Below, piece by piece: positions 14,225 to 54,700 of a stretch of 64,000 nucleotides of DNA. The translations under genes were made by a program, and so were the position numbers. Below the pieces are notes generated by a model. It was not told the DNA's origin and did not search any database. It saw nothing but the letters and a program-made list of their open reading frames with translations. This DNA is from an uncultured bacterium. GTDB taxonomy: Bacteria; Muiribacteriota; UBA6191. Position 1 is the first letter of the stretch, and every line of letters begins with the position of its first letter. Location: assembly GCA_964503595.1 (NCBI GenBank), contig CAZDAM010000003.1, positions 5,844 to 69,843 on the forward strand. Reading direction: 5' to 3'.

Positions 14225-15463
14225 ATGAAAAACGCCCTGACAATTTTCGGGGCCATGCTGGTCTTTCTGGGAGTTCGTTATATCAAGACTTCCAGAGGGC
14301 CGGAAATGGTTCCTCCTGTACAGAAAACAGAAGAAAATTCCTATGTAAAAATTCCATCGATTGCACCTTTGAGGGCCCGTCGCTCGGAAAGAAAACCAAA
14401 CCCTGACTGTACCCGTGCCATGCAGGTAGTAAGGATTGAGGATCCCGATCTGATCCCAGAGCGCCTTCAGACAATTCTGATTTCCAGTGGGGATTTTTCG
14501 ATTCAAAGATCCTATCCGGCAGAACTGGATTTTTTGCCCAGCAGGCTCAGGCTGATGACAGCTCGCACTGCTTTGACGGTTCTGAATCTCTTTGTGACGG
14601 ATGGAGAGGAAGTTCTAAGTGGTGATGCCCTGCTTGAAGCGGAAAGCCGCGAACTCGCGGATGCCCAGTCAGCCTGGCTGAAGGCCCAAAGAGCCCTTGA
14701 AGTCCAGAAGGAATCTCTTTTTAGAGAAGAAGAGCTGCTCAAGTCCAGTGTGGGTAATCAGAGGGATCTGAGTCAGGCCAGACGGGACTTCATTCAGACC
14801 CAGTTGAACCTGGAGATTGCCGGGCAGAAGCTGGCCTGGTTTGGCTATCAGAAAGAAGAATACGAAGAGCTTGAGAAGCGGCGAACTGTGGATGCCCGCT
14901 TTGTACTGAGGGCAGCTTCACCGGGGAGGGTTCATTCCCTTGAAGTTGTTGTGGGAACCCATGTTGAAGAAGGGCACAATCTGTTAAAAATTGCGGATTC
15001 CTCCCGCTTGAGGGCTCGCATCTGGGTGCCTGTTGGTCAGGCTGACTCCTTTCATAAAGGTCAGCGCTTTGTGGTTCAAAGCCAGAATCGTCAGACCGAA
15101 GGCAGGATTACCGCTGTGCCCTCATTTCTGGACTCCCATACACGCCAGATTGCCGTTTGGGGTGAGTTTGAGAATCAGGATTTTCTCGCCGGAGAATTTG
15201 TAACCGCCGAACTTCAGGAAGAGCTGAAAAACCGGGTTGCGGTTCCTCTTGGGGCCATTCAGTGGGATGGTTGCTGCAATCTGGTCTTTGAGAAAATCGG
15301 GGAGGGTGAATTCCAGCCCCACAAGGTTGTGCTTTATGAGCGGGGGGATTACAAGCAGGTGGTTTCCGGTCTTCAGGAAGGCATGGAAATTGTGACAGAC
15401 GGCGCTTTTGTTCTCAAATCCATTCTGATGCAGTCAGAAATGGGTGATGCCTGCTGCGGGTAG
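14225..15463 (+). CDS. Efflux RND periplasmic adaptor (membrane fusion protein, CzcB/CusB-like)
   Basis: N-terminal TM anchor, coiled-coil hairpin, beta-barrel region, C-terminal 'MQSEMGDACCG'. A 4-nt gap to the downstream CzcA-type pump. Confidence 0.75.
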   Translation: MKNALTIFGAMLVFLGVRYIKTSRGPEMVPPVQKTEENSYVKIPSIAPLRARRSERKPNPDCTRAMQVVRIEDPDLIPERLQTILISSGDFSIQRSYPAELDFLPSRLRLMTARTALTVLNLFVTDGEEVLSGDALLEAESRELADAQSAWLKAQRALEVQKESLFREEELLKSSVGNQRDLSQARRDFIQTQLNLEIAGQKLAWFGYQKEEYEELEKRRTVDARFVLRAASPGRVHSLEVVVGTHVEEGHNLLKIADSSRLRARIWVPVGQADSFHKGQRFVVQSQNRQTEGRITAVPSFLDSHTRQIAVWGEFENQDFLAGEFVTAELQEELKNRVAVPLGAIQWDGCCNLVFEKIGEGEFQPHKVVLYERGDYKQVVSGLQEGMEIVTDGAFVLKSILMQSEMGDACCG

Positions 15464-15466
15464 ATT

Positions 15467-18400
15467 ATGAAGCGCCTGATAGATTTTTCCCTGAAACAGA
15501 AAGCCGCTGTCGTCGTGATTGCTCTTCTGATTATGCTCATGGGGGTTCATTCGGCCCTGAATCTTCCTCTGGACGCCTTTCCGGATACGACACCGGTTAT
15601 GGTCCATGTCAATGCTGAGGCTGAGGGGCTTGGGCCCCTGGAAATTGAAGAGCAGATTCTAAGACCCCTCGAAAGAACCCTGCTGGCCACAGCAGGAGTT
15701 TGGGAAATCAGATCTCTGGCCCGTTTCGGCTTTGGCCAGATCATTCTGATTTTTACGGATGGCACAAAACTCATGCATGCCCGTCAGTCAGTCCTGGAGC
15801 GGTTGAATGGATTTCAACTGGTGGATGGTCTGGCTCCCCCTGAGCTTGGACCACCAGCAACTGGAATGGGCGAGGTTTTCCATTACACCTTAAGTTCTCC
15901 AATCCGGGATTTGAAGAGTCTGATGGATCTTCAGCGTTATGAGCTTGAACCCCGCTTGGCTTCTGTTTCAGGAGTCGCCGAGATCAATGCCTGGGGAGGC
16001 CTTCTGAGGCGGGCTGAAGTTCTTGTGGATCTCAAGAAACTTAGAAAATACGACCTGCGTCTGAAGGATGTCTTTGAGGCGATTCGGAGCCAGGTATCTG
16101 CCCGGGGAGGGGGTGGAATTGCTCTTGGAGGGGAATATCACCTGATCCAGGGTGATACCCGGTATCGAAAACTGGAAGACATTGAGAACGCGGTTGTGAG
16201 CACGGTTGAAGGTATTCCAGTTCTGGTTTCAGATATTGGCCAGGTGATCGACGGGCATGCCCTCAGAAGGGGGGCGGTTTCCATGAACGCAGAGGGAGAG
16301 GTATTGCTTGGACTGGGTTTCATGAGCTTCGAACAGAATGGCCGTGAAGTCAGCAGGGGGTTGGAACAGGCCCTGGAAAGTGCCCGCGATATTCTTCCGG
16401 AAGATGTGAGTACCCAGGTGATTTATTCCAGAGAAACCATCGTGAATGCGGTCTTGCAGACAGCCGGGAGCAATCTGGTTTTTGGTTCAGCTCTGGTATT
16501 TGTCGTTCTTCTGGTGTTTCTGGGAGATCTTCGTGCCGGGTTGATTGTGGCTTTGAGCATGCCCTTCTGTCTTCTGTTTGCCTTCTGTGGAATGAGGGTT
16601 ATCGGGATTCCGGGAACCCTGATGTCACTGGGGGCCATTGATTTTGGGCTGGTGGTGGACTCCAGTGTGATTCTGGTGGAAAACACCTGGCGAAGGCTCA
16701 GGGGAAAACAGGATTGCAATCGGGATGAAACTGTTTCTGAAGCTTCCATGGAAATGCGTCAGGCAACCATCTTCGGAGAGCTGATTCTGATTCTGACCTA
16801 TCTGCCCATTCTCTTTATGGCCGGGGCAGAAGGAAAGCTTTTCAGGCCCATGGCAATCACCATCATGCTGGCATTGGCGGGTTCTTTTCTGTGGTCGATC
16901 TTCATTGTCCCGGTACTTTCCTCCTGGTTTTTGAAGCCCGGGGTTCAGAAAGAAGCCCGTTTTTTGAAACCGCTCAAAATCCTTTACCTGTACTGTCTCA
17001 AGAGTCTTCTTCCCCGCAGGAAAATAGCTGTTGCCTGTGCTTTTCTTGCCCTTATCGGTGGCGGCTTTATGGCATCCCGGTTGGGAGCACGTTACCTGCC
17101 CAGACTGGAAGAAAATACTCTGGTGCTGTCTACAGTAAGAATGCCGGGAATTTCTCTTGAGGAGAATCTGGTGCAGTCGCGGGATCTGGAAGCATATCTG
17201 CTCAGGCGTTTTCCCCATGAAATTCGGGCAGTTTTAACCCGGATAGGGTCGGCCGAACTGGCTACGGATCCCATGGGTCTGGAGCAGGCCGATGTCTTTT
17301 TGGATCTTTTTGATAAAAAGCATTGGAAAAGGGCTCACTCTCAGGTAGAGCTTCAGGAGCTTGTCCGCAGTGAACTGGAGTCTTTTCCGGGCATTAAAAT
17401 CGTGATGACTCAGCCCATTGAAATGAGAATGAATGAGATGGAGGCGGGGATTCGTTCCGATGTGGGGATTCTGATCTATGGAGAAAACTTTCAGGAGTTG
17501 GCCCAAAGAGCATTGGAAGTGGAAGCTCTGGTCAAGACATTGCCGGATGCAGTGGATGTCAGCGCCGAAAAAATCACCGGTGGACCGATGGTAAGAATTC
17601 AGGCCCATCCTTCAGAGCTTGGACGTTATGGTCTGATGGGGGAAGATGTTCTGAATCTGGTGGAAGCGATCGGAGGAGTTCCGGTGAATCTTCTGATACA
17701 GGGAGAAAAGCGCTATGACGTTGTAGTTCGACTGCCTGAAGAGATGCGCCAGGATCCCGAGAAACTCGGGGGTTTGCAGTTGATGACAGAGGCTGGAGGC
17801 CAGATTCGCCTGGATGCTGTTTCTGATGTTGTCATGGAAGATGGGCCAGTGCTGATTTCCCGGGAAAGAACCCGCAGAAGAGTTGTCGTACAAGCTTCTG
17901 TAGCTCATTCGGATGTGGGCGGTTTTGTTACAAGACTCAAGGAACAGCTGGAGCGCTCCCTGGAGTGGAATACGGGGCTTTCCTTTGAGCTTGGAGGTCA
18001 GTTTCGCCATTACGAAAGTGCCCGCAGGGGATTGGTTTTCAGTATTTCCCTGACACTGATTCTGATTTTTTTTCTGCTTCAGGCCAGCACAGGAAATCTT
18101 CGGGATACCTTCTGCATCATGAGCGGGGCTCCGTTCGCTGCTCTTGGAGGTATTCTGGCCCTTTCCCTTATGAATCTTCCCTTTTCGATTTCAGCAGGAG
18201 TCGGTTTTGTGATTGTCTGCGGAGTTTCCATGCTCAATGGCCTGGTGATGATTTCCACTCTTAGAAGAAGAGAAAGGAAATTCCTGAATCGCAGCCTGAT
18301 TCTGGCGGCACTGGAACGCTTGCAGCCGGTTTTGATGACGGCTCTGGTAGCATTCTTCGGGTTTCTTCCGATGGTTTTCAGCAGTGGGATCGGTGCAGAA

Positions 18401-18511
18401 ATTCAGCGACCTCTGGCGGTAGTGGTTGCCGGTGGGGTCATTTCGGATACCTTGCTGACTCTGCTCATTTTGCCCTGTCTTCTGGGGCTTTTTCACAAGG
18501 AGGTGGAATGA
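15467..18511 (+). CDS. czcA: Heavy-metal efflux RND transporter (CzcA/CusA family, HME-RND)
   Basis: 1014 aa, 12-TM RND topology with two large periplasmic loops. HME-type conserved blocks 'AIDFGLVVDSSVILVEN' and 'GAPFAALGGILAL'. Confidence 0.8.
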   Translation: MKRLIDFSLKQKAAVVVIALLIMLMGVHSALNLPLDAFPDTTPVMVHVNAEAEGLGPLEIEEQILRPLERTLLATAGVWEIRSLARFGFGQIILIFTDGTKLMHARQSVLERLNGFQLVDGLAPPELGPPATGMGEVFHYTLSSPIRDLKSLMDLQRYELEPRLASVSGVAEINAWGGLLRRAEVLVDLKKLRKYDLRLKDVFEAIRSQVSARGGGGIALGGEYHLIQGDTRYRKLEDIENAVVSTVEGIPVLVSDIGQVIDGHALRRGAVSMNAEGEVLLGLGFMSFEQNGREVSRGLEQALESARDILPEDVSTQVIYSRETIVNAVLQTAGSNLVFGSALVFVVLLVFLGDLRAGLIVALSMPFCLLFAFCGMRVIGIPGTLMSLGAIDFGLVVDSSVILVENTWRRLRGKQDCNRDETVSEASMEMRQATIFGELILILTYLPILFMAGAEGKLFRPMAITIMLALAGSFLWSIFIVPVLSSWFLKPGVQKEARFLKPLKILYLYCLKSLLPRRKIAVACAFLALIGGGFMASRLGARYLPRLEENTLVLSTVRMPGISLEENLVQSRDLEAYLLRRFPHEIRAVLTRIGSAELATDPMGLEQADVFLDLFDKKHWKRAHSQVELQELVRSELESFPGIKIVMTQPIEMRMNEMEAGIRSDVGILIYGENFQELAQRALEVEALVKTLPDAVDVSAEKITGGPMVRIQAHPSELGRYGLMGEDVLNLVEAIGGVPVNLLIQGEKRYDVVVRLPEEMRQDPEKLGGLQLMTEAGGQIRLDAVSDVVMEDGPVLISRERTRRRVVVQASVAHSDVGGFVTRLKEQLERSLEWNTGLSFELGGQFRHYESARRGLVFSISLTLILIFFLLQASTGNLRDTFCIMSGAPFAALGGILALSLMNLPFSISAGVGFVIVCGVSMLNGLVMISTLRRRERKFLNRSLILAALERLQPVLMTALVAFFGFLPMVFSSGIGAEIQRPLAVVVAGGVISDTLLTLLILPCLLGLFHKEVE

Positions 18512-32506: not shown

Positions 32507-33331
32507 TCAGGGAACAGAAGGGACCAGTTTATGGATTTCCTCCTGAAGGATGCGCATTCCCCGGTTCCAGTCCTTATCGCAGTGAGCCGAGATATTGAGA
32601 CGGAAACAGTTGGCATGGCGGCCGGAGGTAGAGAAGACGGTGCCGGGAAGAATGAACACTCCCCGTTCGCTGAGTCTCCAGAAAAGAGCCTCGGCATCCA
32701 GATCCGGGACTTCCACCCACAAAAAGACTCCTCCGGAAGGCATGGTCATGCGGGAATTTCCCGGCAGTCGGGAGGGGAGATCCAGAAGGATTTCATCCAG
32801 GGCCAGATTCATGGCTTCCATGCAGCCGCTGGTGACGAGAATTTCCTCCGGGTTGATGGGAGTGCCGCCTTCCACCATGTGGGCGGCCAGAATGGTTCGA
32901 AGTTCGGTGAGACCGGCGACCGGGGCATAGGAGAGGAGACTTGGCTGAAGCATGGCCTCCCGGAGAAGATCGGCCAGGGTCTTCTGGGGCATCAGGCTGA
33001 GATGAAGGCTGGCGGAGCCCAGATCGAGCATATCGGGCTTGCGGAAAAACTCGGTGATGCCTTCATTTTTGGGTTCGGGACGGGTGGCAATCGGAGAGCT
33101 GGGTCTGTGTTCGGCCCGCCTGACGAAAAAGCCGGAGTGTTCACGGGTTTCGATTTTTCCGAGACTCTCCAGTTCGTAGTAGGCCTTGAGGATGGTGTTG
33201 CGGCTTACTCCCTGCTGATACATCAGATCCCTGACGGAGGGCATGCGGCTTCCGATGGGATAAACTCCCTGTTCGATGCCTTTCAAAAGCGTGGAGGCAA
33301 GGCGCTGCCAGGCAAAACCATCCGTTCCCAT
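32507..33331 (-). CDS. MocR-like GntR-family regulator with an internally deleted aminotransferase domain
   Basis: GntR wHTH 'SVRDLMYQQGVSRNTILKAYYELESLG'. An AAT-like N-part then joins directly to the C-terminal small domain 'GGVFLWVEVP...NCFRLN'. Only 274 aa against about 470 expected. Confidence 0.55.
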   Translation of the reverse strand: MGTDGFAWQRLASTLLKGIEQGVYPIGSRMPSVRDLMYQQGVSRNTILKAYYELESLGKIETREHSGFFVRRAEHRPSSPIATRPEPKNEGITEFFRKPDMLDLGSASLHLSLMPQKTLADLLREAMLQPSLLSYAPVAGLTELRTILAAHMVEGGTPINPEEILVTSGCMEAMNLALDEILLDLPSRLPGNSRMTMPSGGVFLWVEVPDLDAEALFWRLSERGVFILPGTVFSTSGRHANCFRLNISAHCDKDWNRGMRILQEEIHKLVPSVP

Positions 33332-35791: not shown

Positions 35792-37753
35792 CTACCTCAA
35801 ACTGAAAGACATCATCTCGTTCAGGCTGAAGTCACGGTTGAGAACGCGCAGGCGGATGGAAGAAGTGCGGCTTTCAATCCGGCGCTGAATGAGATGCATG
35901 ATCAGGCGGGAGAGGCGGTTTCCCCAGGGGGTTTTGCAGGACCTGTGCAGGAAGTTCTGCAGAAACTGGGGGCAGTGTTTACGAAACAGGTCATCTTCAA
36001 GGCTTAGAACCAGTTTGACGCTTCCGGGCTGACCCTGGCGTGAAGTCCTTCCATAAAGCTGAAGATCAATCCGGCAGGATTCATATTTCTGGGTGGCCAC
36101 GACATGAAGTCCGCCAAGTTCCTCGACCTCGCGATCCACATGAATATCGGTACCCCGGCCCGCCATATTCGTGGCAATCGTAATGCCGCCGAGTTCTCCG
36201 GCCTTTGCCACAATCTGGGCTTCCTCTTCATGCTTCAGGGCATTTAAGATTGTGCAGGAGAGATCGGAGGCGGCGAGTTCATTGGCCAGCCATTCGCTTT
36301 CTTCTACGGAACGGGTTCCGACAAGAACGGGCTGGTTTTTGCGATGGACTTCGCGAATATGCTTGAGGATGAAGGACCATTTCTCATCAAGGGTGGCGCA
36401 GACGGTGACAGGTTCAAACTCGTAGGTCCGGGGAATGCGCTTGGGGATTTTCATGGTAGGCAGACGGTAGATCTGCCACAGTTCTTCCTGAAGATTCTGA
36501 AGGGTTCCGCTCATGCCTGAGAGGCGCTTGTACAGGCGGAAGTAGCGCTGAAAACTCATGCGGGTATGGGTTTCGGTTGGATCTGATAATTCGAGTTCTT
36601 CCTTGGCTTCAATGGCCTGATGAAGGCCTGAGCCCCAGTTGCGGTGTTCCATGATCCGGCCTGTTGCTTCATCGACAATCACGACTTTGCCTTCTTCATC
36701 AATCAGATACTGCTGGTTGAGGTGATAGAACTCACGGGCAGCCAGGGCCTGATGCACCAGAAACTGGCGTCTTTCCTTGGCTTTCCACATGGCGGGAAGG
36801 GGTCGTACCAGTTCATCCACAAAGCTTTCACCAGCTGGAGTCAGGCGAATGTCCTGGAATTTACGGTTGACGGTGTAGTGTTTGTCGGGTCGCATCTTGC
36901 GGGCGATTTCACAGGCAATCTGGCTGGCTTCCTTGAGAAGTTCGTTTTCTGAGGGGATGGAAATGATCAGCGGGGTGGTGGCCTCATCGGCCAGAACGCT
37001 GTCAGCCTCATCAATGATGGCGGTGTGAAGGCCGCGCATGACCATGGGTTTTGGGGGTCTTCCCTGAAGATTCCGGATTAGAGAACGGTCCCAGTCCAGA
37101 TCCTCCTGGCCCATCCGATCCCGTAGAAAGTCGGCCAGAAGCTCTTTGCTGGTGGTATAGACAATATCGCGGGAATAGGCTTCCTTTCTTTCCCGGGGGC
37201 TCATGGAGCCCGTAACAGAGGCTCCTCTTAGCTGGCAAAGAGAAAACAGGGGCTGCATGAGTTCGGCATCGCGGGAAGCCAGGTAATCATTTGAGGTGAC
37301 AACATGACAGGGAAGGCCGCTCCAGCCTGCCAGAACCGCCGTGATGCCGGCGACGATGGTTTTTCCTTCTCCCGGTTTCATTTCGATCAGGTAGCCATCA
37401 AACTGGGCCAGCACTCCCATGAGCTGAACTGGGTAGGGGCGCATTCCAAGAGAGCGAAAGGATGCTTCGGCCACCAGAGCCAGGGAGTCGGCCAGATTCT
37501 GTTCTTCCGGATTGGGATTTCCACGAAAGATCTTGCGCGCCGATCTGATTTTTTCCTGAAGCTCTTCGGGGGACAGATGGGCATGCTGAAGGGAAATCTG
37601 GTGGATGGCTTCGGCTTTTTTGCGAAAAACCCGCGGGCTTTTGCGCAGGCGGTGGATCAGGCGGAAAAAGGAATGAACCCAGGCATCAAGGCCCTCATAG
37701 GACTTTTTTTCCCTTGGGACGTGAAAGCGCTGGAATTCGGCGGAAAGATCCAT
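35792..37753 (-). CDS. SecA-like translocase ATPase paralog (motor domains only, lacks SecA C-terminal scaffold/wing/CTD)
   Basis: 'MKPGEGKT' Walker A, 'VVTSNDYLASRD', 'IIDEADSVLADEATTPLIIS', 'ATNMAGRGTDI' and 'GGLHVVATQKYESCRIDLQLYGRTSRQGQPGS...SLEDDLFR' are all canonical SecA blocks. Only 653 aa. Confidence 0.8.
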   Translation of the reverse strand: MDLSAEFQRFHVPREKKSYEGLDAWVHSFFRLIHRLRKSPRVFRKKAEAIHQISLQHAHLSPEELQEKIRSARKIFRGNPNPEEQNLADSLALVAEASFRSLGMRPYPVQLMGVLAQFDGYLIEMKPGEGKTIVAGITAVLAGWSGLPCHVVTSNDYLASRDAELMQPLFSLCQLRGASVTGSMSPRERKEAYSRDIVYTTSKELLADFLRDRMGQEDLDWDRSLIRNLQGRPPKPMVMRGLHTAIIDEADSVLADEATTPLIISIPSENELLKEASQIACEIARKMRPDKHYTVNRKFQDIRLTPAGESFVDELVRPLPAMWKAKERRQFLVHQALAAREFYHLNQQYLIDEEGKVVIVDEATGRIMEHRNWGSGLHQAIEAKEELELSDPTETHTRMSFQRYFRLYKRLSGMSGTLQNLQEELWQIYRLPTMKIPKRIPRTYEFEPVTVCATLDEKWSFILKHIREVHRKNQPVLVGTRSVEESEWLANELAASDLSCTILNALKHEEEAQIVAKAGELGGITIATNMAGRGTDIHVDREVEELGGLHVVATQKYESCRIDLQLYGRTSRQGQPGSVKLVLSLEDDLFRKHCPQFLQNFLHRSCKTPWGNRLSRLIMHLIQRRIESRTSSIRLRVLNRDFSLNEMMSFSLR

Positions 37754-37757
37754 TTCG

Positions 37758-39902
37758 TCAGAATTGGTAGCGCTTCTGAAGAAGCTGTTTCAGAAAGAGC
37801 ATGAATTGACCCATCACGGAGGAATCCGCCAGCTCGATACGGATTTCCCCGGTGCGCCCGTGCAGGGTTTTGAGGTTCTCGTGAGGATGGAAGACGGCCC
37901 TGGCTTCAAAGAAGGATTCCTGGGTCTTGAGCCCGTCTTCTCTTTCCACGGCAATATCACCGCCACCGTACCAGCCCAGAGCCATGGAGGGAAGTTCATC
38001 CTTTTCATGGGGAATAACAGTAAACTGGGTGACGGGCAGGGTGATTTCGGACTGCCCCCTGAATTTGAGGCTGGCCTGGGGCTCTTTGAGTTCGAACAGG
38101 TCGTAGGCGTTTTCCTGGGAAACAACGGCCACGAATTCAAGATCCTGAGACGGAAGGATGGCCCCGAGTTCGGCTCCAGCCTTGGCCCAGGTGCCGAGGT
38201 AGCGACGTAGATCCGGGGCAATCCAGGTGCCATTGGTTTTGGCCCGCACGGTAAGTTTGTCCCTGCGATCCTTTAGAAGATCCAGCTTGCGGCCGAGAAA
38301 GGCAATGCGTTCGGAGATGGGCTTCAAATCGGCAACCCGGTTTTCGCGGGCCTTGATTTCAAGCGCTTTGGATTCCTGAATCTGGGCCCCTACCAGCAGA
38401 ATTTCCACGTCCAGATCCGGGTTTTCCAGGCGGGCCAGAATCTGATCCGTCTGAACCACGCTGCCACTGGGGGCAATGATTTCCTTAAGAATACCGGGGG
38501 TCTGATTGTGGATGCGGGTGTAGTCACGAGCATGGATAACACCGGGAGCCCGGATGGAATTGGACATGGGGACATAGAAGAGGAGTCCGATCAGAAGGGA
38601 GATGGTCAGAATGGCGAGGCTTACGGCCCTGAGCCGGACCATTTCCAGGGCCGGATCAAAAAACAGGTAATGTATGAGGTTGTAAACAGGCTTGAGGAGC
38701 CAGGTCCAGGCGGAGATGGCCACGATGATCAGACCGACTTCAAACCACTGGTCCAGAACAAACAGGGCAATCCCGGCAGAAAGCAGAACCCGGTACGCCT
38801 GGGAGGCGAAGCCATAGGAAAGGAGCCAGAAGGACTCGGTGGCACTTGAGGCGGCTCTTTCGATATCCGGCATTCCCAGGATTTTACTTTCCAGAATATA
38901 GCGCCATTCCTCGCGGGATCTCTGGGCCAGATTCGGAATTTCGAGAACATCAGAGAGGATGTAATAGGAATCCAGACGGGTCAGGGGATTTCCATTGAAA
39001 AGAAGGCTTGAAACGGAACCGATGAACATCAGGTTGAAGGCCAGGCTGTTGATGACTCCGGGGCCGGTATGAGACCAGACAATCGTGGCCAGAGCAGCAA
39101 TGAAGAGTTCGACAATCATGCCGGCGGCACCAACCAGGGCTCTTTGCCAGCGGTTTCGGAAGGCCCAGCTTGAAGTGGCATCCATATAGGGCAGGGGAGT
39201 CAGAATCAGAAACATGACCCCCATGGTGTGAACTTCCCCCCCGAAGCGGCGGGTAGCCATGGCATGACCCATTTCATGCAAAAACTTCAGTCCGGCCAGA
39301 CAGATGTAAAGCAGAAAGATATTGGATGGGGCAAGGACTCCCTGGCCACTCTGATAAAGGGCCTGGGGGTTTTCCAGGGCGTACCAGAACCCGGTGAAAA
39401 CCACTAGGGCCCAAACCAGAAACCCTCCCCTGGAGAAAATCATTCTGGTGACATTGTCGTAGCGGACAAGCCAGGTGTGGGGATCCCACAGGGGCATGCG
39501 AAAGAACAGGAAGGACTGGATCTTGCTGGTCAGCTCCTTCTGTTTGGTGCGGGAATAGCGCTCAAAAACGGCCTCTGTATCCGGGGAGTTTTCCACATAA
39601 AGCAGGTTTGAGAGATGAAGCTGGGAGAGGAGACGGATGACGGCGTCCTGGGATGGGGTGTCATCCGGGTTTTCCCGGAGGGATTCTTCCCAGAGATCAT
39701 GCACGGTGGATTTGGGGTTCAGGCGCATGACAAAGCGGTAGGCCTCAGGAGAGAGGCGAAAAAAGCGGGAATTGAAGGGGTCTCTTAAGACGTAGCACAT
39801 TTCCCCACGAAAGAACTGTTTGTGGCTTTGGATGGCGCTGTGAATTCCGGCCCGAAGTTCGGCAACCCGATACCAGGATTCACTGAATAGATTCCCGATC
39901 AT
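37758..39902 (-). CDS. Fusion protein: polytopic M50 (site-2-protease-like) zinc metalloprotease domain plus C-terminal HlyD-like periplasmic adaptor
   Basis: 'HEMGHAM' HExxH sits inside a hydrophobic segment with multiple TMs. The C-terminal 300 aa has biotin-lipoyl-like 'VQTDQILARLENPDLDVEIL', a coiled coil and a beta-barrel. A 4-nt gap to the neighbouring genes. Confidence 0.7.
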   Translation of the reverse strand: MIGNLFSESWYRVAELRAGIHSAIQSHKQFFRGEMCYVLRDPFNSRFFRLSPEAYRFVMRLNPKSTVHDLWEESLRENPDDTPSQDAVIRLLSQLHLSNLLYVENSPDTEAVFERYSRTKQKELTSKIQSFLFFRMPLWDPHTWLVRYDNVTRMIFSRGGFLVWALVVFTGFWYALENPQALYQSGQGVLAPSNIFLLYICLAGLKFLHEMGHAMATRRFGGEVHTMGVMFLILTPLPYMDATSSWAFRNRWQRALVGAAGMIVELFIAALATIVWSHTGPGVINSLAFNLMFIGSVSSLLFNGNPLTRLDSYYILSDVLEIPNLAQRSREEWRYILESKILGMPDIERAASSATESFWLLSYGFASQAYRVLLSAGIALFVLDQWFEVGLIIVAISAWTWLLKPVYNLIHYLFFDPALEMVRLRAVSLAILTISLLIGLLFYVPMSNSIRAPGVIHARDYTRIHNQTPGILKEIIAPSGSVVQTDQILARLENPDLDVEILLVGAQIQESKALEIKARENRVADLKPISERIAFLGRKLDLLKDRRDKLTVRAKTNGTWIAPDLRRYLGTWAKAGAELGAILPSQDLEFVAVVSQENAYDLFELKEPQASLKFRGQSEITLPVTQFTVIPHEKDELPSMALGWYGGGDIAVEREDGLKTQESFFEARAVFHPHENLKTLHGRTGEIRIELADSSVMGQFMLFLKQLLQKRYQF

Positions 39903-39905
39903 GTT

Positions 39906-41753
39906 CTACCACCAGAGGTACAGACGCATGGTGTCCGTAATGCGGTGAAACAGAATCCAGCCGACACTGCGTCTTCCGGCCTTGATGCGGGCCAGGCCGC
40001 TCATGCCGGGTCGCCACCAGCTTTCCGGGCTCTCTACGAACCGGGCCTTCAGTTCGAAGGTGTTCCCGCTTCTGGGGTCTACTCTGGCAACAGGGACCAG
40101 GGTTTCGATTTCAAAGGGGTATTTCATCTGGGGATTGCTCAGAAGAGCCATTTCTCCCTGTCCGGGAACGGTAATCTCATCAATATCTCTTTCGGGAACC
40201 TTCAGGATGAGATACATGGCCTCAGGCTGGGCAATCTGGTACAGAAGATCGCCTTTGTTGATGGGGGCGCCCATCAGCTTTTCCTTTTCCCCCTCAACAA
40301 TGACTCCATCCTGAGGGGCCTTGAGATCGGCCCTGTTCAGGTAGAACCGGACCCGTTCCAGCTCGGCTTTGGCCTGAGCCAGACGGGCTTCGGAGATATT
40401 CATGTCTGCGAGTCGGCCATCGGCACGGGCCTTCTGGGTTTCCCTCTCATAGCGGGTGACTTCGGCCTGGGCTTCGGTGATTTTGAGATGGATTTCCTCG
40501 GTGTCGATCTGAATCAGGGTCTGGCCTTTGGTGACGGTATCCCCGCTATGGGCCAGTACATTCAGAATCACTCCGTCCATGGGGGAGGAAATGTAGGAAA
40601 TCAGATCGGTTTTGAGTTCGGCTCCGACTTCCACATCATAGTCCCAGGTGCCAAAAGTCAGAAACAGAACAGAGGCGAATCCAATCAGGGCCAGGAGCTT
40701 GGCAAAGGAGTTCTCCGGGCCCAGAAGCCACTGAACCTTGTCCTTCAGATAGTTTTTGAGGCGCTCGCCAGCCCATTGATCGTCGGCATGAAGGCGGGCC
40801 AGAACCGGGGCGCTTTGATTGGCAATCAGTCTCAAGGCCATGATTTCCTGGGGGTGGAACCGGCTTGAGGCCTTTTCAATGGTCAGAACTCCGGCGGGCT
40901 CATCCCTGAATCTTAGGGGGAGGCTGATCACCTGAAAGGCACCGCACTGGGACAGAAACTGCTGGTGGGCAGTCTGAATGGTTCCGGGATCCTCATGTCC
41001 GGGGCAGAGGATCTCTTCGTTCTGATCCAGGCTCTCTTCCATGGCATTGGCCAGACGGACACAGGCTTCGGTCTGGGAGTCAAAGCGCTCGAGATGGCTG
41101 ATGGCCTGAATTTTGATATAGGGGTTCTCATGCCAGCCAAGGCTGACCCGGGATACCTGAAACCGGGAGCAGAGATCGTTGACCAGGCTCATGGAGGCCA
41201 GCTGAAACCGCTCGGCCTTCAGAAGCTGGCTGATGACTTCAAGGGAAGAACCGATCATGCCCTGTTCGCGGGTTTCCCCTGTGTCAGGCAGATTTTCCTC
41301 ACTGATCATGGCCAGCAGTCTGGTGCGGATCAGGAGCTCATTCAGGGCTCTTGAGGGCAGGGGGCCCAGAGCCAGAATGATCAGGTGAGGGGTCTGGGAA
41401 CGTTGAGTTTCGTAGGCGATCACGTTCTGAAGTTCGGGAACTTCGGTGCGGATTTTTTCCAGGGCACAGCCTTTTTCCCTCACCCTGGGCAGCATATCCC
41501 GTCCCGATTCGGCGAGCTGTTCCATGAGGGAATTGGCGTGTTCCTTCGGGTTGAATACGGCATCGACCTGAATCTGCTCTGGGCCGGGAGAAAGAATCAG
41601 TCCGGTGTCAGCGCTACAGATTCCACATACGATTCGCAGATAATCGGACCAGAATGCCTCACTTTTTGGCATCTGGCGCAGGGTTTGAAGTTCTGAAAAA
41701 TACTGGGTCTGGTTCATGGGGAACTCGATTCTTCCGGTTCCGAATTTTCTCAT
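39906..41753 (-). CDS. HlyD-family membrane fusion protein with a roughly 330-aa cytoplasmic N-terminal (GAF-like?) domain
   Basis: Single TM 'LLALIGFASVLFLTFGTW'. Then 'GDTVTKGQTLIQIDTEEIHLKITEAQAEV' lipoyl-like, a coiled coil, and a C-terminal beta-barrel 'ARIKAGRRSVGWILF'. Confidence 0.65.
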   Translation of the reverse strand: MRKFGTGRIEFPMNQTQYFSELQTLRQMPKSEAFWSDYLRIVCGICSADTGLILSPGPEQIQVDAVFNPKEHANSLMEQLAESGRDMLPRVREKGCALEKIRTEVPELQNVIAYETQRSQTPHLIILALGPLPSRALNELLIRTRLLAMISEENLPDTGETREQGMIGSSLEVISQLLKAERFQLASMSLVNDLCSRFQVSRVSLGWHENPYIKIQAISHLERFDSQTEACVRLANAMEESLDQNEEILCPGHEDPGTIQTAHQQFLSQCGAFQVISLPLRFRDEPAGVLTIEKASSRFHPQEIMALRLIANQSAPVLARLHADDQWAGERLKNYLKDKVQWLLGPENSFAKLLALIGFASVLFLTFGTWDYDVEVGAELKTDLISYISSPMDGVILNVLAHSGDTVTKGQTLIQIDTEEIHLKITEAQAEVTRYERETQKARADGRLADMNISEARLAQAKAELERVRFYLNRADLKAPQDGVIVEGEKEKLMGAPINKGDLLYQIAQPEAMYLILKVPERDIDEITVPGQGEMALLSNPQMKYPFEIETLVPVARVDPRSGNTFELKARFVESPESWWRPGMSGLARIKAGRRSVGWILFHRITDTMRLYLWW

Positions 41754-41910: not shown

Positions 41911-42660
41911 ATGTTTAAAAAGATTGTGCCGATCACTAAAGATGCCCATAAGAAAACAAAGATCAAAGCGTTGGCAAATTTCGAGTTTGCGAAGGACGTC
42001 AACCTTGCGGCCGTGATGGTCCATGAGTTTTCCCGTGCGGCAGCGACTTACCCGATTGTGTTTCTGGAAGACAAGGAAAAGGACCAGTTCCGTCCTACGG
42101 TTCTTCTGGGCCTTGAGCAGGGCGAAAACCTGTTTGTGAAGGAAGGAAAGTGGGAGGCTTCGTACATCCCGGCCATCATCCGCCGCTATCCTTTTGCCCT
42201 GGCAAATACAAACGAAGCGGATAAGTACACAATCTGCCTCGATGAAGGCAGCGATCTGGTTAATGATAAAGACGGCCAGGAGCTTTTCGACGGCAAGGGC
42301 GAACCAAGTGAGCTGATGGAGCGCGTGAAGCGCTATCTGGGCGAGCTTCAGCAGATGGAGCGTTTCACTCAGGAGTTCTGTGCAGCGATGTCCCATCTGA
42401 ACATGTTCACTCCCCTGAATATGAAAGTGCGCCTTGGCAATGAAATCAAAAACATCAATGGGGCCTATGTCATCAATGAAGAGCGCCTGGGCTCTCTTTC
42501 GGATGAAAAATTCATCGAGCTTCGCAAGAAGCAATACATTCCGGTGATTTACTCCCACCTGAGCAGTCTGTCCCAGATTGAGCGTCTTCTGACCTTCAAG
42601 GACAAGAAGGGTGGAGTGACTCCAGATGCCATCGAACAGTTCTCGGAGACCGTGAATTGA
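41911..42660 (+). CDS. SapC family protein
   Basis: About 250 aa with 'YPIVFL' and 'PAIIRRYPF' blocks, which I recognise as the SapC family (named from the Campylobacter fetus S-layer secretion locus). Divergent from the HlyD/SecA-like operon. Confidence 0.6.
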   Translation: MFKKIVPITKDAHKKTKIKALANFEFAKDVNLAAVMVHEFSRAAATYPIVFLEDKEKDQFRPTVLLGLEQGENLFVKEGKWEASYIPAIIRRYPFALANTNEADKYTICLDEGSDLVNDKDGQELFDGKGEPSELMERVKRYLGELQQMERFTQEFCAAMSHLNMFTPLNMKVRLGNEIKNINGAYVINEERLGSLSDEKFIELRKKQYIPVIYSHLSSLSQIERLLTFKDKKGGVTPDAIEQFSETVN

Positions 42661-42680
42661 GTTTGGTTCTCTTCTGTATC

Positions 42681-42739
42681 CCTCCGCCGTGCCAGGCGGA
42701 GGAATGAAAACAATCGGGATTCCGCTACAGGTGTAGCGG
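42681..42739 (+). other. Two tandem GC-rich hairpins between sapC and the giant gene (possible attenuator/terminator)
   Basis: cctccgcc-gtgcca-ggcggagg (8-bp stem) and ccgctac-aggt-gtagcgg (7-bp stem) followed by a T-rich tract. Confidence 0.4.
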
Positions 42740-42788
42740 GGTCCCTTTGGTGTTTCTTGGCAATTTTCGAAAAACGCAGGAAAAACTT

Positions 42789-45700
42789 ATGAGCTCAAAA
42801 ATGAAAAGCCTTGTCAGAACCCAGACCTACATGAAAGCACGCCGCTTTTTTCAGAAATTTACGAAGAAGAAGGAGGCCGCTCCTCAGGTGCTTGATGGCA
42901 GACGGGAACGCTTCCGTCTGGACAGCCTTGAAGAGAGAGTTCTGCTTTCAGCAGATCCGGTTACGGAGACGGCTCATGCGATTTTGCACGAACCTCAGAA
43001 GAACGAGTCCCGAATTGAGCTTTTAAGTGAGGCTTCCCTGCGTCAGCCTACCCTAAGCCTTCAGGAACAGCACCCTCAGGCCGCAATTGTTCTGGATGCC
43101 GGCACGCTTTCCCAGAACAGAAATTCCCTGGAATCCTCCCTTGTGATCGGCGAGAACGAAGTTCTTGGCGGCAGTGGAAATCTGGGCATTCACCTGATGA
43201 ATGATGGCACCGTTGCTCCCGGATATTCTCCCGGAGTTCAGAATGTAGCCAGCTTCACCCAGGCCGAAGGTGCGACCCTTGAAATCGAAATCGGGGGCAG
43301 TGGGGTTGCCGGGGCCTCCGATGGTTTTGATCAGCTCAATGTCTCCGGTCTGGCAAGCCTTGGTGGCAAGCTTGAAGTCACCCTTCTGAATGACTACAAA
43401 CCTCAGGTCGGAGACACTTTCGACATCCTTACCTTTGGCTCGGTGAGCGGAGAATTTGATTCGGTAGGCGGTCTTTACGGATTTTATGCAGATTATTACT
43501 TCGATGTGGTGCAAAAATCCGATCGCATTCAGCTGGTCGTCAAGGAGCTTTTGCCCGGAGATACCTTCGAGATTGCCGCTGACGAGGCCTTTCGAGATGC
43601 CATGTCGGAGTTTCTGGCTCAGGATTATCTCAAGAAGCCGACTTCCATTACCTTTACCGGCTCCATTGATCTTGGAGATGCCTTTTCGGTTGGAGGCACC
43701 TTTACCCTGAATCAGGTCAGCACCGGTCAGGATGTCACTTTAAGTGATGGGTCCACAGTCAATGTTTCGATCAAGACTCTGGGGATGCGGGGCGCTTCAG
43801 CTTCTTTGGGTGGAAGCTTCGGCCTTCAGTTCGGCGGAGCTGATCTGGGAATTGCCATTTTTGATGCAACTTCCGAAGAAGATGGCCGCAGTTGGGTTGG
43901 AGCCCAGGGAAGTCTGGAAAGCGTTTCTCTTTTGAATCTTGGAAGCTACGGCATCCAGGGAGAAAACCTTCAGCTTGACATCTTCCAGGCCCTGGGAGAA
44001 GACAATGATGTTTTAATCGATTTGTCGGAAACCCCGTTGAGTATTTCTGATGGCAGTGGAACACTGGCTGAATTCTCCAATGACGGAGTTTTTGGGGAGT
44101 ATCTGAACGTGGCTGGAAATCTCCAGCTCACCATGCCTTTTTTGAATGTCTCCGGAGATTTCTTTGTCTCCGCGGATGATGCCTCCCTGTTTCTGGCCGG
44201 AGAAAATGTCACCGCTAGCTTTGAAGCCGGAGGCATGACTCTGGGTGTAAACAATGCCCGCTTTGGGGCCTACATTTTTGAAGATCAGAGCATGGTTCTG
44301 GAAGCAACCGGTGGCCTTGTCATGAGTGGAGGCGATTTCACGCTTCCTACTGGCGATTCTGTGAGCCTCAAATACAACACCACTGGCATCGAATTCACCG
44401 ATCTGGAAATGGCGATTGGGGAGAGATCCTTCACTTTTGGAACCATCGAAGCTTCCGAAGAACTCCTGGAATTGAGCATCAGTGGCTTTGAAGCCAACCT
44501 GGGCGGAGTGTTCGGGCTGTCCGGAGACTTCGGTTTCCGCAAAAACGGGGAAGATCTGAATGTGGTGGCTCAGAATGCTGCCGTAAGCCTGAATGCTGGC
44601 GGCTTCAAGGCTGGAGTGAAAGACGCCACCCTGGGTCTGAAAATGAGCGATCTGGGAACCGCCATGGAAGCAACCGGCGCGGCCTGGTTTGAGCTTGGAG
44701 ATGCAGTTTCCCTGAGTGCTGACAGTGTCCAGGTGCTCTATAACGAAACCGGAGAAGACCTGATTGGAACCAGTCTCTCGGCTGCTTCTCTGGAATATAC
44801 CTTTACAGCAATTGAGGGTTCGACGACCCTTCAGCAAGTGGCTGTAAGTGGGGCCAGCCTGGAAGTGGCCGGCTTTGTGCAGGCCAGCGGTAATCTTGCC
44901 GTCAAGCGGGATGAAGTTGCTCTGGAGCTTTCGGATGAGTCCCTGGTTCTGGCCGAGCTTTTGACCATTGGTGGCAAGAATGTAAGCGCCTTTGCCGGCC
45001 TGAATGGTGGCTCTTCCTCCGCTTTGGGCCTTCAGATCAGCGCCCTGACTTTCGGGGTCGCCCTGATGAGCGAAATCGATGGTGAGGAGAGAAGCTGGAC
45101 AGCCGTCTACGGGGAAGCCGAATCCGCCGGATTTGTCGGTCCAGACAGCCTCACGATTTCTGCCAGTGCCCTGAAACTCGAACTGAATCTGGCCTCAGAA
45201 GACGGCCTGGTAGTGGATTTCTCGGAATTCAGTCACAGCGTTCCCGTTGGTGTGGGCGAAAGCCTCAGCCTTACGATGGACGCTCAGCGGGGCGAACTGA
45301 TCAGTGTCAGTGGCAACCTGAACATCCGCATCTTTGATTTCTTCGCCGTCTCCGGAGGCTTTGCCCTGGAAAAATCCACAGAAACTCTGAGGCTTTCGGA
45401 TGAAAGCGAAGTGGAAGTGGAGCTTCTGACTCTGGGAACCCAGGGAGTCTCGGCTTTTGCCGGTCTGAATCATGGCAGTGACAATGCCTTTGGTTTCTCT
45501 TTGGGAGATGTGAGCCTGGCTTTGGTCATGGCCACAGAAAAAGAGGATTCCTCCCAGTCCTATGTGAGCCTGAAAGCTCAGGCTGGCAGCGTAGCCTTTG
45601 AAGGAATCCCCGGAATCACCATTGCCGCAGATACCCTGGCCGTGGAACTGAACCTGGCATCAACAGAAGGTCTTTTGGTGGACTACTCCACCAAAGCCCT

Positions 45701-51700: not shown

Positions 51701-54700
51701 TGTCGCGACCAAGGCCCATGTTGGACGGGCTGCCCTGATTGGTATGGAAGAGTTTCTGGATGTGGAACTCAACAAGGTGGAAGTCAATATCAACACTTCC
51801 ATCATCAAGGGACTGCCACCTCAGGCAGCTCTGGTGGCCCGCCTTCCGAACATCAATTTTGAAGAGTCCTTTGAAGAGGGTTACTACGCTGTTCCTACCG
51901 GGGCGGATGATGTCCTCATGGACTTCAATAATGAGCTGATTGAAATTTCGATTGGCTATGCAGAAGGAAACCTGGCCGGAATTCTTCAGCTCAGCGGTTC
52001 CATGGCCTTTTCCAAGCGGGGCTCGGAAGAAGTGACCTTAACGGATGGAACCAAGAAAACGGTTTCCACTCTGAGTCTGGGGATTGGAAATGCCTACGGC
52101 TTTGTCGGCTACGGAGGTTACTGGAGAGATTCCGATGGCAACGGCAAGATCGATGAAAACGATATTCCGAATACCTCAGCTGTAGGCCTTGCCATTGAAG
52201 ATTTGAATGTTGGCGTTGTATTCATGCGCGCCATTGACAATACGGATGTCTATGTCGGAGCCCAGGCCGATCTGACCAAGGCCGGATTCGTCGGAATTCC
52301 GGGAGTTACCTTTGAAGGCCGTGATTTCAGCCTCAGCCTGAATGCTTCCGTGACCGGTCCTGCCGTGGATTTCTCGGTATCCGGTGCAGATGGTGGGGCA
52401 TATCATGTGAAAACCGGTGAATTTGATCCGGAAACAGAAGAAGAAATCGATATCCTTCTGGAGCATGATGAGAAGCTTCTGGCAGCCCAGGGTGTTGCTG
52501 AAATCAACTTCTTTGATGTGGTTCAGATTGACGGAGCCTTCGATATCACAGTCGCAGAGTCCGGCATTGTGCTGTTTGCGGATGGCGATGCCTTCATCGG
52601 TGCGGGTGGCATTGGAATGTCCACCAGTGTGACCGGTCTTGTGGCCATTGAAGATGGTATGGCCATGCGTCTGAATCTGGAGCAGGGTCTGGATCTTGGA
52701 CCTCTGGCTTCCTTTGATGCGGAATTTGAATTCCGGATGAATACCTTTGGCCGGGACTATGTCTATGTGGTTCCGGAAAAACTCAGGGAGAAAACCGGAT
52801 TCGATGAATTCGTGGTTTCAGCCAAAGCACCCGGACAGGATGAGGTTTCCGATTTCTATGTCTCCCTGACCGGAGAAGGACACCTGAGTCTTCTGAGTGC
52901 TCTTGATATTGATGGTGAATTTGCAATTGTCTTCACCGAAGACAGTGCCCGTCTGGAAATCGGCGGCATCATCGATATGCCTCTGTTTGAACCTATCGGT
53001 GTTACCGGAACTCTCGGGTTTGAGGATGGCGGGCTTTACGGAGCTCTTCAGCTCGGACATCCATCCGGTTCGACTCTGATTGATGCGGGAGTTTTCTCCA
53101 TCAGCGGTTCTTTCCTGCTTCAGATCAATACGACATCGGAAACCCAGACCGTCAAGGCTCTGGACTTTTCTGAAGACGGAACCATCATTGGTTTCACTAC
53201 CAGAGAGATTGCCGCGGAAGAACTCTATATCGCCGGAACTGCATCGATTGAGCTGGCCGGATTTCTGGAAATGTCCGGCTCCGCAAGCCTGAGGCTGAGT
53301 TCTGAAGGAGTGGAAGCCGATCTGGCCATGAGCCTGGATCTGGGAGCCTTCGGAAGCCTGGAATTCAAAGGTGCTGCCGCAATTCTGAATACTGAGGATG
53401 AGGGCGCGGTCTTTGCCCTGAGCGTGGAAACCAATGTTGTCCTGGGCATGGATATTGTCGGAATTCAGGCTGGAGCCCTGCTTCAGATCAATACCAGCTC
53501 CATGCACGAATATGCAGGTGTTCAAGCCGGAACCACCTTCCTTCTGGAGCTCGACGGGGCCCTGAAGCTTCTGGCCTTCAATATCGATTTTGCCGGATCG
53601 ATCAGCGTGATTGACGGCATCTTTGAACTCCGAGTTGATGAAGCCAGTCTGAGCTTCTTCAATTTCGTGAATATTGAAGTCAGCGGATATTTCCGCTCGG
53701 ATGGAAAATGGAGAGTCAGTGGCGAAGCCCATATGAACATTGACATGGGTCCACTGGAACTCAGTGCCGGCTTTGAACTCACGGTCGGGCACGACATCTT
53801 CCGGGCAAGGGTCTATGGTTCTTTGGATATCAATATCGATATGGGGCTTTTCTCCATCAATGAAACCCTGGCAGGTTTTGAGGGTCTGATTGAAATCACG
53901 GAAGCCTCGGCCCACCTGAAAGCATCCGTTACCATTGTGGGAATCAGTGTCTCCGGTTCCATGACCTGGAGCTGGGGTGCTCCTCCGGTGATTGCTTCCC
54001 AGGTTGGCGACACCGTCATCCTTCACATGGGTGATGATGCTGACAAACGGGGCGATCTCTATCTCGACATCGTCAACGAGACCTATCACATCGAGGAACA
54101 GAAGGGAGTCCTGACAGTCCGCGCCATGGGTGAAACCATGGAATTCCGCAACGTGAAGCGGATTGTCGCCAAAGGTGGCAATGGCAATGACACCATCATT
54201 GTTGGCACGGGTGTTACCGCCAAGCTCGAATTTGATGGAGAAGACGGAACGGACACTCTGCTGATTGCCGGAGGTGCTGAGGGCTCTGTCATTCGTGGTG
54301 GTGCCGGCAATGACTATATGGTTGGTGGAAACGGCGGCATCTACTATTACGGGGATGGTGGCAATGACACCTTCATCGGGGGCGATGGCGGCGAAATCAT
54401 TGACATGGGTACCGGCAAGAACACAATTACAGCTGCCGGTGGAAATGACGTTATCTATATCGGAGCCGGGAATAACACGGTAGATGCCGGTTCTGGCAAT
54501 GACACCATGTATGTGGGCTGGAACGGGTATCTGGAGCTCACTGCCGGATCCGGAGAAGACATTGTCATCATGGATACCCTGGCTTCCAACGAGTCCCTGA
54601 AATTCAAGGATCACAGTCTGGAATACAGCTTAAGGGCCATGGACTTCGGTGATGATCTCGAACTGATTCAGATCAGGGATACCGCGGCGACCACAAAAAT

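Follow-up and report, generated by a model that had tools for sequence, protein, structure and literature searches.

The window examined herein is a 64,000-nucleotide (64-kb) stretch of contig CAZDAM010000003.1 from an uncultured bacterium of the Muiribacteriota, and it contains the 5' part of a gene for a giant protein beside genes for a truncated SecA paralogue (SecA2) and for two HlyD-containing proteins, one fused to an M50 metalloprotease (M50-HlyD) and the other to a GAF domain (GAF-HlyD). We show herein that the giant protein carries an LEPR-XLL domain close to its N-terminus, and that this domain and the SecA2/M50-HlyD genes recur side by side in other genomes, whether a survey starts from the machinery or from the domain. 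It is probable that LEPR-XLL proteins are clients of this machinery. With a probability that we put at roughly 0.6, LEPR-XLL is a leader that is bound by a recognition element known from peptides that are made on ribosomes and modified after translation (RiPPs), cleaved by the M50 protease and pushed by SecA2 through a duct of HlyD and TolC-like parts. Whether LEPR-XLL, together with SecA2, M50-HlyD with its RiPP-recognition element (RRE), GAF-HlyD, a small adaptor, a TolC-like protein and often SapC, makes up a separate secretion pathway that is widespread among diderm bacteria is an even call.

A sequence-only reading of the window had described the giant protein as basic at its N-terminus, devoid of a classical signal peptide and endowed with an LEPR-XLL-like motif, had placed it next to SecA-like and M50-HlyD genes, and had suggested that these encode its cognate machinery. 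The N-terminus quoted in that reading is an exact translation of 42789-42980 (+ strand), and the neighbours are real, since domain matches identify SapC, GAF+HlyD, M50+HlyD and a truncated SecA. Residues 1-45 contain 14 K/R versus 4 D/E (net +10), and no 11-residue window within the first ~95 residues exceeds 0.75 on the Kyte-Doolittle scale, so the H-region of a signal peptide is absent. A basic N-region without a hydrophobic core, as judged by charge count and hydropathy (aa 1-41; 42789..42911, +), leads into the LEPR-XLL domain (aa 42-64, FRLDSLEERVLLSADPVTETAHA; 42912..42980, +), whose start at residue 42 is very close to the N-terminus for a protein that exceeds 7,070 aa. A search with the NCBI model for this domain, which the same reading had proposed, gave a significant match: NCBIfam NF012209.1 ("LEPR-8K", LEPR-XLL domain-containing protein) covers aa 42-64 with positions 1-23 of its 24, with a score of 28.8 bits (E 6e-7; curated cutoff 17). 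With a hidden Markov model (HMM) of our own, built from 23 LEPR-XLL N-termini, the giant open reading frame (ORF) scored 29.7 bits, while the next best score in the six frames of the window was 8.1 bits and the best in a reversed-sequence control 8.2 bits; the match is therefore not a matter of chance. The giant protein belongs to the LEPR-XLL family by every feature that can be tested. As for conventional signals, a Sec (type I) signal peptide was rejected because only the basic n-region is present (hydropathy stays below 0.75 over aa 1-95), and a Tat signal because the RR pair in GRRERFRL has the wrong spacing and is not followed by an H-region.

Over 87 distinct leaders, the consensus reads [FY]-x-L-E-x-L-E-P-R-[VLI]-L-L-S-[AG]-D. 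Its first three conserved positions lie outside the search pattern and are nonetheless occupied by F/Y in 73, by L in 67 and by E in 82 of the 87 leaders. The LEER of the window is a rarer variant of LEPR, with glutamate at that position in only two of the 87. The 15 residues that precede the motif are basic (mean net charge +1.9, positive in 68/87) and the 40 that follow are acidic (mean -5.5, negative in 81/87), and no hydrophobic core was seen across the 87 leaders (mean maximum 15-residue hydropathy 1.25). In leaders with an assignable start codon, the beginning of the motif lies ~12-46 residues from the first methionine. The proteins that carry it can be as short as 147 aa or exceed 16,000 aa, and they are unrelated in domain content. 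Small ORFs of 147-282 aa beside the machinery also bear it (L163:4561-5145, L028:14294-15112, L158:1560-2405 and L081:1564-2097), so LEPR-XLL is not confined to giants; some of these small ORFs may be frameshifted fragments.

The linkage from machinery to leader was assessed in 80 loci (one genome per species) chosen by M50-HlyD alone and analyzed in six frames with 10-kb flanks. These came from Verrucomicrobiota, Desulfobacterota, Gamma-, Beta- and Alphaproteobacteria, Campylobacterota, Spirochaetota, Planctomycetota, Chlorobiaceae, Elusimicrobia, Fibrobacter and others. SecA2 follows M50-HlyD in 72/80 loci and GAF-HlyD precedes it in 76/80; a TolC-like gene and a third adaptor of roughly 300 aa lie ahead of this triad in 56/80 and 60/80, respectively, so that the usual unit is a five-gene operon. 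The LEPR HMM gave 25 matches of at least 29.7 bits, in 23 of the 80 loci plus the window, and all 25 of these machinery-adjacent N-termini also pass NF012209. The LEPR ORF lies 3' of SecA2 on the same strand in 16 of the 23 loci and is divergent from GAF-HlyD, as in the window, in the other seven (7/23). Where at least 1.7 kb is available downstream of SecA2 (52 loci), the motif was found 126-980 nt downstream on the same strand in 14, for which P is about 1e-17 under a generous null. Nearly all LEPR ORFs of this sample extend past the 10-kb flank, and in many more loci the 3' end of a huge ORF enters from outside the flank.

The converse survey started from the leader. Metagenome DNA was scanned with the peptide pattern LEPR[VIL][LM]LS[AG]D alone, which was derived from a 7-sequence subset of the leaders and hence retrieves the canonical variant only; 80 loci were obtained, all of which gave an LEPR match of at least 22 bits, with 5.0 bits as the next best score. 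The giant gene itself conceals the downstream side of these loci. Among the 43 loci whose upstream side spans 2.5 kb or more, SecA2 immediately precedes the motif on the same strand in 14, most often accompanied by M50-HlyD and GAF-HlyD, and SapC lies directly upstream of it in three. The 14/43 has a P of about 4e-22 under a crude null in which one triad is placed at random per genome, so that the chance per locus is at most about 0.005. A leader-only profile search of a 5.8-billion-protein collection, based on a word index, returned four short proteins.

SecA-like and M50-HlyD genes are thus strongly enriched beside LEPR-XLL in the neighbourhood survey that the sequence-only reading had called for (14/43 from the leader, 23/80 from the machinery), and the suggestion that they form the cognate machinery of the giant protein gains support both from this two-way linkage and from an operon of Pseudosulfitobacter sp. 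DSM 107133. On a plasmid of that strain (RefSeq), a 12,918-aa protein named "LEPR-XLL domain-containing protein" by PGAP heads the operon and is followed on one strand by an HlyD adaptor, a site-2 protease family protein, SapC, SecA2 and an adaptor (MFP). A plasmid of Methylosinus sp. C49 (RefSeq) encodes a giant of 8,847 aa whose N-terminus reads ...IIFDTLEPRVLLNAD. The genes that come after it are, in order, those for DUF3467, an adaptor, a "PqqD family protein", SecA2, an adaptor (MFP) and TolC. The DUF3467 protein (106 aa; L167:17744-18064) sits between the LEPR giant and the adaptors of Methylosinus, where SapC is found elsewhere, and may be an alternative accessory to SapC. RefSeq/PGAP labels SecA2 as a "prepilin peptidase" at NZ_AP022333.1 174172-176088 and NZ_CP085155.1 317513-319537 (L167 and L169, respectively); since the Methylosinus protein scores 452 bits against the SecA2 of the window, this label is an annotation error that hides the system.

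SapC homologues, sampled separately from the two surveys above, led to similar arrangements. In the complete genome of Arcobacter roscoffensis, SapC is followed by a gene for 16,191 aa whose N-terminus contains ...KKQKKLFKEGNSLFEIEPLEQRTLLSADP, and in contig L165 by a gene for 13,932 aa with ...DDVFMVDSLEERILLSADP. On a 266-kb contig, a single operon (OEP, MFP, GAF-HlyD, M50-HlyD and SecA2) is preceded by a 147-aa LEPR protein and followed by a 3,524-aa LEPR giant; a 4,886-aa giant, whose N-terminus falls outside the locus, precedes the 147-aa protein, and a third LEPR protein (3,201 aa) is encoded about 29 kb away. This is how one machine with several clients would be expected to look.

The SecA2 of the window (653 aa; 35792..37753, -) consists only of nucleotide-binding domain 1, the preprotein cross-linking domain and nucleotide-binding domain 2. 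The Pfam families SecA_DEAD, SecA_PP_bind and P-loop_SecA were matched and SecA_SW (scaffold/wing) was not; the alignment to Bacillus subtilis SecA spans residues 18-607 only, and places the wing domain, the two-helix-finger region and the C-terminal tail among the missing parts. The Walker A GEGKT, DEAD and TNMAGRGTDI motifs are retained. As the ATPase motifs and the preprotein cross-linking domain are kept, both the motor and the clamp are present. All NCBIfam SecA2 models scored far below their cutoffs with this protein.

The M50-HlyD protein (37758..39902, -) begins, according to domain matches and hydropathy segments, with a soluble N-domain (aa 1-150), continues with some 6-7 hydrophobic segments (aa 154-444) and ends in an HlyD-like C-part (aa 445-714), with the N-domain predicted to be cytoplasmic and the C-part periplasmic. 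Its Pfam M50 match scores 33.4 bits versus 27.2. The HExxH zinc site (H209 E210 H213; 39264..39278, -) and the NPLxxxD motif (N305, P306, D311) are invariant in 20 homologues, and these zinc-binding motifs fall in membrane segments, as they do in M50/site-2 proteases. The nearest curated family to the M50 part is the intramembrane HExxH metalloprotease of daptide RiPPs (155 bits, below the cutoff of that family). A fold search assigned aa 1-105 (39588..39902, -) a PqqD-like RRE fold, that is, a three-strand/three-helix winged helix like that of known RREs, lasso B1 proteins included. Only the fold search detected this; a sequence search of the RRE profile against the PDB gave no match. The Pfam PqqD family (PF05402) was not matched by the window protein and only weakly by seven of the 20 homologues (best E 0.00096), and PGAP labels homologues of M50-HlyD as "PqqD family". 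The GAF-HlyD adaptor (39906..41753, -) has its GAF domain at aa 190-315 and is predicted to possess a cytoplasmic N-part with the GAF domain, a single transmembrane segment (aa 350-368) and a periplasmic HlyD part.

Relatives of M50-HlyD are numerous: 5,609 of 8,000 candidates scored were found at E<=1e-10, and the 120 that were listed have a length of about 716 aa and share 42-53% identity with the query. Distant homologues in Azospirillum (27% identity) are solitary and lack SecA2, so the link between M50-HlyD and SecA2 is limited to a closer subfamily. Partial tblastn matches (E<=1e-20) to M50-HlyD also occur in PLSDB on 17 Escherichia and eight Citrobacter plasmids.

In the mechanism that we favour, the RRE domain at the N-terminus of M50-HlyD would capture the leader in the cytoplasm, and the truncated SecA would feed the unfolded chain, N-terminus first, into an inner-membrane complex, where the M50 metalloprotease would cut the leader off. 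The periplasmic HlyD-like parts of M50-HlyD and GAF-HlyD, mostly with the third small adaptor, would provide the link to a TolC-like channel, so that the giant protein might leave the cell in a single step through the duct; SapC would act as a conserved cytoplasmic accessory. For the recognition and cutting steps there is precedent: M50 proteases that cut, and perhaps export, RiPP peptides are documented, the leader peptidases of lasso peptides require an RRE, and the M50 protease EpeP is thought both to cleave and to export its peptide (PMC10885120). By analogy, the nearest working counterpart would be a peptidase-containing bacteriocin exporter, with which no homologous part is shared.

Several observations weigh against this mechanism. 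About 60% of the loci retrieved by the leader (26/43) contain neither machinery nor SapC within reach, and no recurrent gene family was found upstream of these 26; adjacency of LEPR-XLL and machinery is common, not the rule. The candidates of that survey were filtered by similarity to one leader, itself from a machinery-adjacent gene, and represent the canonical LEPR[VIL][LM]LS[AG]D only, with a few loci that duplicate each other or loci of the machinery-based sample. No protein-conducting inner-membrane channel was identified among the machinery genes, and, to our knowledge, M50 domains do not form one. In the window, a terminator-like hairpin sits between SapC and the giant gene, and no homologue of the TolC-like protein (OEP) or of the third adaptor was found anywhere in the 64 kb. 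In addition, an extreme C-terminal motif, [FV]E[YW]W[IV]E[DN]xx[LIF]-stop, is found on giant ORFs at seven to nine loci (L001:1-4719, L022:2-3742, L029:3-233, L030:1-3213, L042:14567-17257 on the - strand, L057:2-2944 and L073:2-1762, with variants in L026 and L051), all of which end just upstream of the SapC or TolC-like gene of the machinery. Examples are ...LFEYWTEDVVL and ...VFEYWIEDINL; the N-termini of these carriers lie outside the view. The motif may be a sorting or secretion signal.

That C-terminal motif raises the question of whether export proceeds in the opposite direction. In a C-first process resembling a type I secretion system (T1SS), the signal would be C-terminal, the leader would arrive last, and the RRE would hold it and thereby tether the extended fibre to the cell via the duct, and cleavage by M50 would set it free, which is comparable to LapA-type adhesins with their N-terminal retention module and LapG cleavage. 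The RTX-like block of the giant protein (see below), the C-terminal motif on giants beside the machinery, and the HlyD and TolC parts, which are T1SS hallmarks, all fit such a process, and because the pairing of RRE and leader is kept, the linkage data fit it equally well. Nonetheless, no ABC transporter was found in the operon at any locus examined, and SecA-type motors are generally known to thread chains from an N-terminal signal. Moreover, the C-terminal motif was not seen on the same proteins as LEPR-XLL (the C-terminus of the window giant lies beyond 64000), and LEPR proteins of 147-282 aa would be poor tethers. We consider C-first export rather unlikely, even though it is also favoured by the authors of a study on giant proteins of Chlorochromatium (bioRxiv 10.64898/2026.03.19.712371).

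Less probable still is a two-step route, in which LEPR-XLL would be an unusual Sec-type signal that is taken by SecA2 to SecYEG, leaving HlyD and TolC to act across the outer membrane only. SecA2 is indeed a true SecA paralogue with a preprotein cross-linking domain, accessory SecA2 systems of Gram-positive bacteria are generally known to export very large adhesins, and no other inner-membrane channel is evident. On the other hand, the leader lacks the hydrophobic H-region needed for gating of SecY, the wing domain, two-helix finger region and C-terminal tail that engage SecY are missing from SecA2, and no secY2 was found in the loci. Finally, that the giant protein is not cargo at all, the machinery instead handling a small peptide or serving as a signalling protease and the adjacency reflecting co-regulation or co-transfer, is hardly credible: RRE and M50 are otherwise a RiPP signature, GAF suggests regulation and many LEPR genes are not adjacent to machinery, but no conserved small ORF accompanies the operon, the motif recurs at a fixed position on otherwise unrelated proteins of 147 to more than 16,000 aa, and the size of the leader and its short conserved motif fit an RRE ligand.

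The machinery itself has been noticed before. Kamneva, Poudel & Ward 2015 (PLoS One, PMC4452313) described a "secondary SecA_DEAD" locus that is composed of SecA_DEAD, M50/HlyD, GAF/HlyD and sometimes OEP, and is found in Planctomycetes-Verrucomicrobia-Chlamydiae (PVC) bacteria, Proteobacteria, Nitrospirae and one member of the Chlorobi. Its function was proposed to be like that of a T1SS, SecA being the ATPase, and the biological role was called "completely unknown"; no substrate or signal was named, and SapC and the PqqD/RRE domain went unmentioned (PMC4452313). The three minus-strand genes of the window are members of this family, as they share with it a SecA2 without the scaffold/wing domain and adjacent M50+HlyD and GAF+HlyD genes on the same strand. 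The nearby OEP/TolC-like gene that some of those loci possess was not found in the window.

From the side of the cargo, the closest account is that of the epibiont giants Cag_663 and Cag_665 of Chlorochromatium aggregatum, which have an N-terminal LEPRxLL, sapC directly upstream and tolC between them, and which are exported and detected outside the producer with no known signal (bioRxiv 10.64898/2026.03.19.712371). A horizontally acquired secA (Cag_1676) belongs to the co-expression cluster of these giants, although the connection was not drawn in that work (bioRxiv 10.64898/2026.03.19.712371). The model put forward there consists of SapC, TolC and one HlyD operating C-first, with no mention of M50 or a truncated SecA (bioRxiv 10.64898/2026.03.19.712371).

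Type I secretion (HlyB-HlyD-TolC) resembles the present system in its periplasmic adaptors and TolC-like channel, and in its very large, repeat-rich, putatively calcium-binding cargo without a Sec signal peptide. It differs in that a SecA-like ATPase and an M50 protease are found here in place of the ABC transporter, the conserved signal is N-terminal, and there are two or three different adaptors versus one. A T1SS identity was rejected, as no ABC gene is present in the triad or in any other locus inspected, and the one ABC gene of the window is MsbA-like and belongs to a lipid A cluster. The peptidase-containing ABC transporters (PCATs) of bacteriocins share only a logic, namely recognition of an N-terminal leader that has no hydrophobic core and is cut during export; they rely on a C39 cysteine peptidase, an ABC motor and a double-glycine leader for cargo of tens of residues, in contrast to the RRE, M50 metalloprotease and SecA2 found here and to cargo of up to more than 16,000 residues. 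RiPP systems (lasso B1/B2; EpeP, TglG and the daptide HExxH protease) have the RRE fold in common with M50-HlyD, whose M50 part is nearest to the daptide protease family. Here, however, RRE and M50 are fused to HlyD and partnered with SecA2 and TolC, the associated proteins are giant ones in place of small peptides, and modification enzymes are absent. The accessory SecA2/SecY2 systems of Gram-positive bacteria likewise dedicate a second SecA to very large adhesins, but use a full-length SecA2, a SecY2 or SecY partner and signal peptides with an H-region.

In the open literature (subscription journals being outside the scope), no paper was found that joins LEPR-XLL to SecA2/M50-HlyD genes, and within the literature searched LEPR-XLL or LEPRxLL appears as a feature of giant proteins only in the 2026 Chlorochromatium preprint. 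Relative to that literature, three points are new: that signal and machine are paired, that an RRE domain is likely to serve as the receptor, and that SapC, the TolC-like protein and the third adaptor are regular companions. The system may be described as a TolC-dependent exporter of the tripartite type in which the engine is a different one and the leader is N-terminal. If the favoured mechanism is correct, a RiPP-style N-terminal leader addresses giant and some small proteins to a SecA motor detached from SecY, with release by an intramembrane metalloprotease. This would be a new numbered secretion system, with signal, receptor, motor and duct all nameable from sequence, in which leader recognition, so far known from small natural-product peptides, is reused for the largest of bacterial proteins. 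Two questions would thereby be joined, namely how proteins without any known signal, from 5,000 to over 30,000 residues in size, are exported and what a truncated second SecA does in Gram-negative bacteria. The candidates are specific: a signal of ~24 residues, a receptor domain of ~100 residues, a protease site, a motor and a duct, with Pseudosulfitobacter sp. DSM 107133, Methylosinus sp. C49, Arcobacter roscoffensis and Methylobacterium extorquens AM1 as cultured carriers. The leader could then also serve as a portable tag for the secretion of very large engineered proteins, and thousands of giant genes now called "hypothetical" would be better annotated.

In the window, the GAF+HlyD, M50+HlyD and truncated SecA genes all lie on the minus strand and are divergent from SapC and the giant gene. 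The SapC family protein (41911..42660, +; PF07277, 245.9 bits) is encoded directly 5' of the giant gene on the same strand. The 128-nt spacer between the two (42661-42788) folds unusually strongly (z = -4.3), and contains a terminator-like 13-bp hairpin with a T-rich tail (TTTGGTGTTT; 42716..42755, +) and a second, 8-bp GC hairpin at about 42681-42702. The former looks like a terminator or attenuator ahead of a gene of more than 21 kb. Among the matches listed, the closest named relatives of the window SapC and M50-HlyD are proteins from metagenome-assembled genomes of Cloacimonadota.

The giant ORF runs from the ATG at 42789 to base 64000 (7,070 codons without a stop) and exceeds the window, which therefore holds its 5' part only. 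An in-frame stop is present upstream at 42705-42707, and an AGGAAA Shine-Dalgarno-like site lies 6-11 nt 5' of the ATG. Divergent repeats of 150-215 aa extend over aa 290-1115 and 1495-3270. The homology to machinery-adjacent LEPR ORFs elsewhere continues past the motif (L071, 987 bits; L064, 730 bits), and 11 such ORFs resemble the window giant outside the motif as well. One RTX-like block with visible GGxGxD motifs, putatively calcium-binding, is present at aa 3796-3905 (54174..54503, +), and its 22.2 bits with Pfam HemolysinCabind fall slightly short of the gathering score of 23. An exoprotein of two-partner secretion (TPS; FHA-like) was rejected as an identity, for want of a signal peptide, a Pfam TPS/haemagglutination domain and a nearby Omp85-type gene. 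The protein is rich in G, L, A, S, T, D and V, and not a single cysteine occurs among the 7,070 translated residues (42789-64000).

Elsewhere in the window, a lipid A cluster (1962-7850) encodes LpxI, two LpxB, an MsbA-like ABC protein and a lipid A acyltransferase, which indicates that the host is diderm, and an AcrAB-like pair is found at 14225-18511. The two LpxB (lipid-A-disaccharide synthase) paralogues (2790-3926 and 5671-6840) flank the MsbA-like ABC gene. A 274-aa ORF (32507-33331, -), which abuts a class V aminotransferase gene, contains a GntR domain and only a C-terminal piece of a class I/II aminotransferase domain, and looks like an internally shortened regulator of the MocR type.

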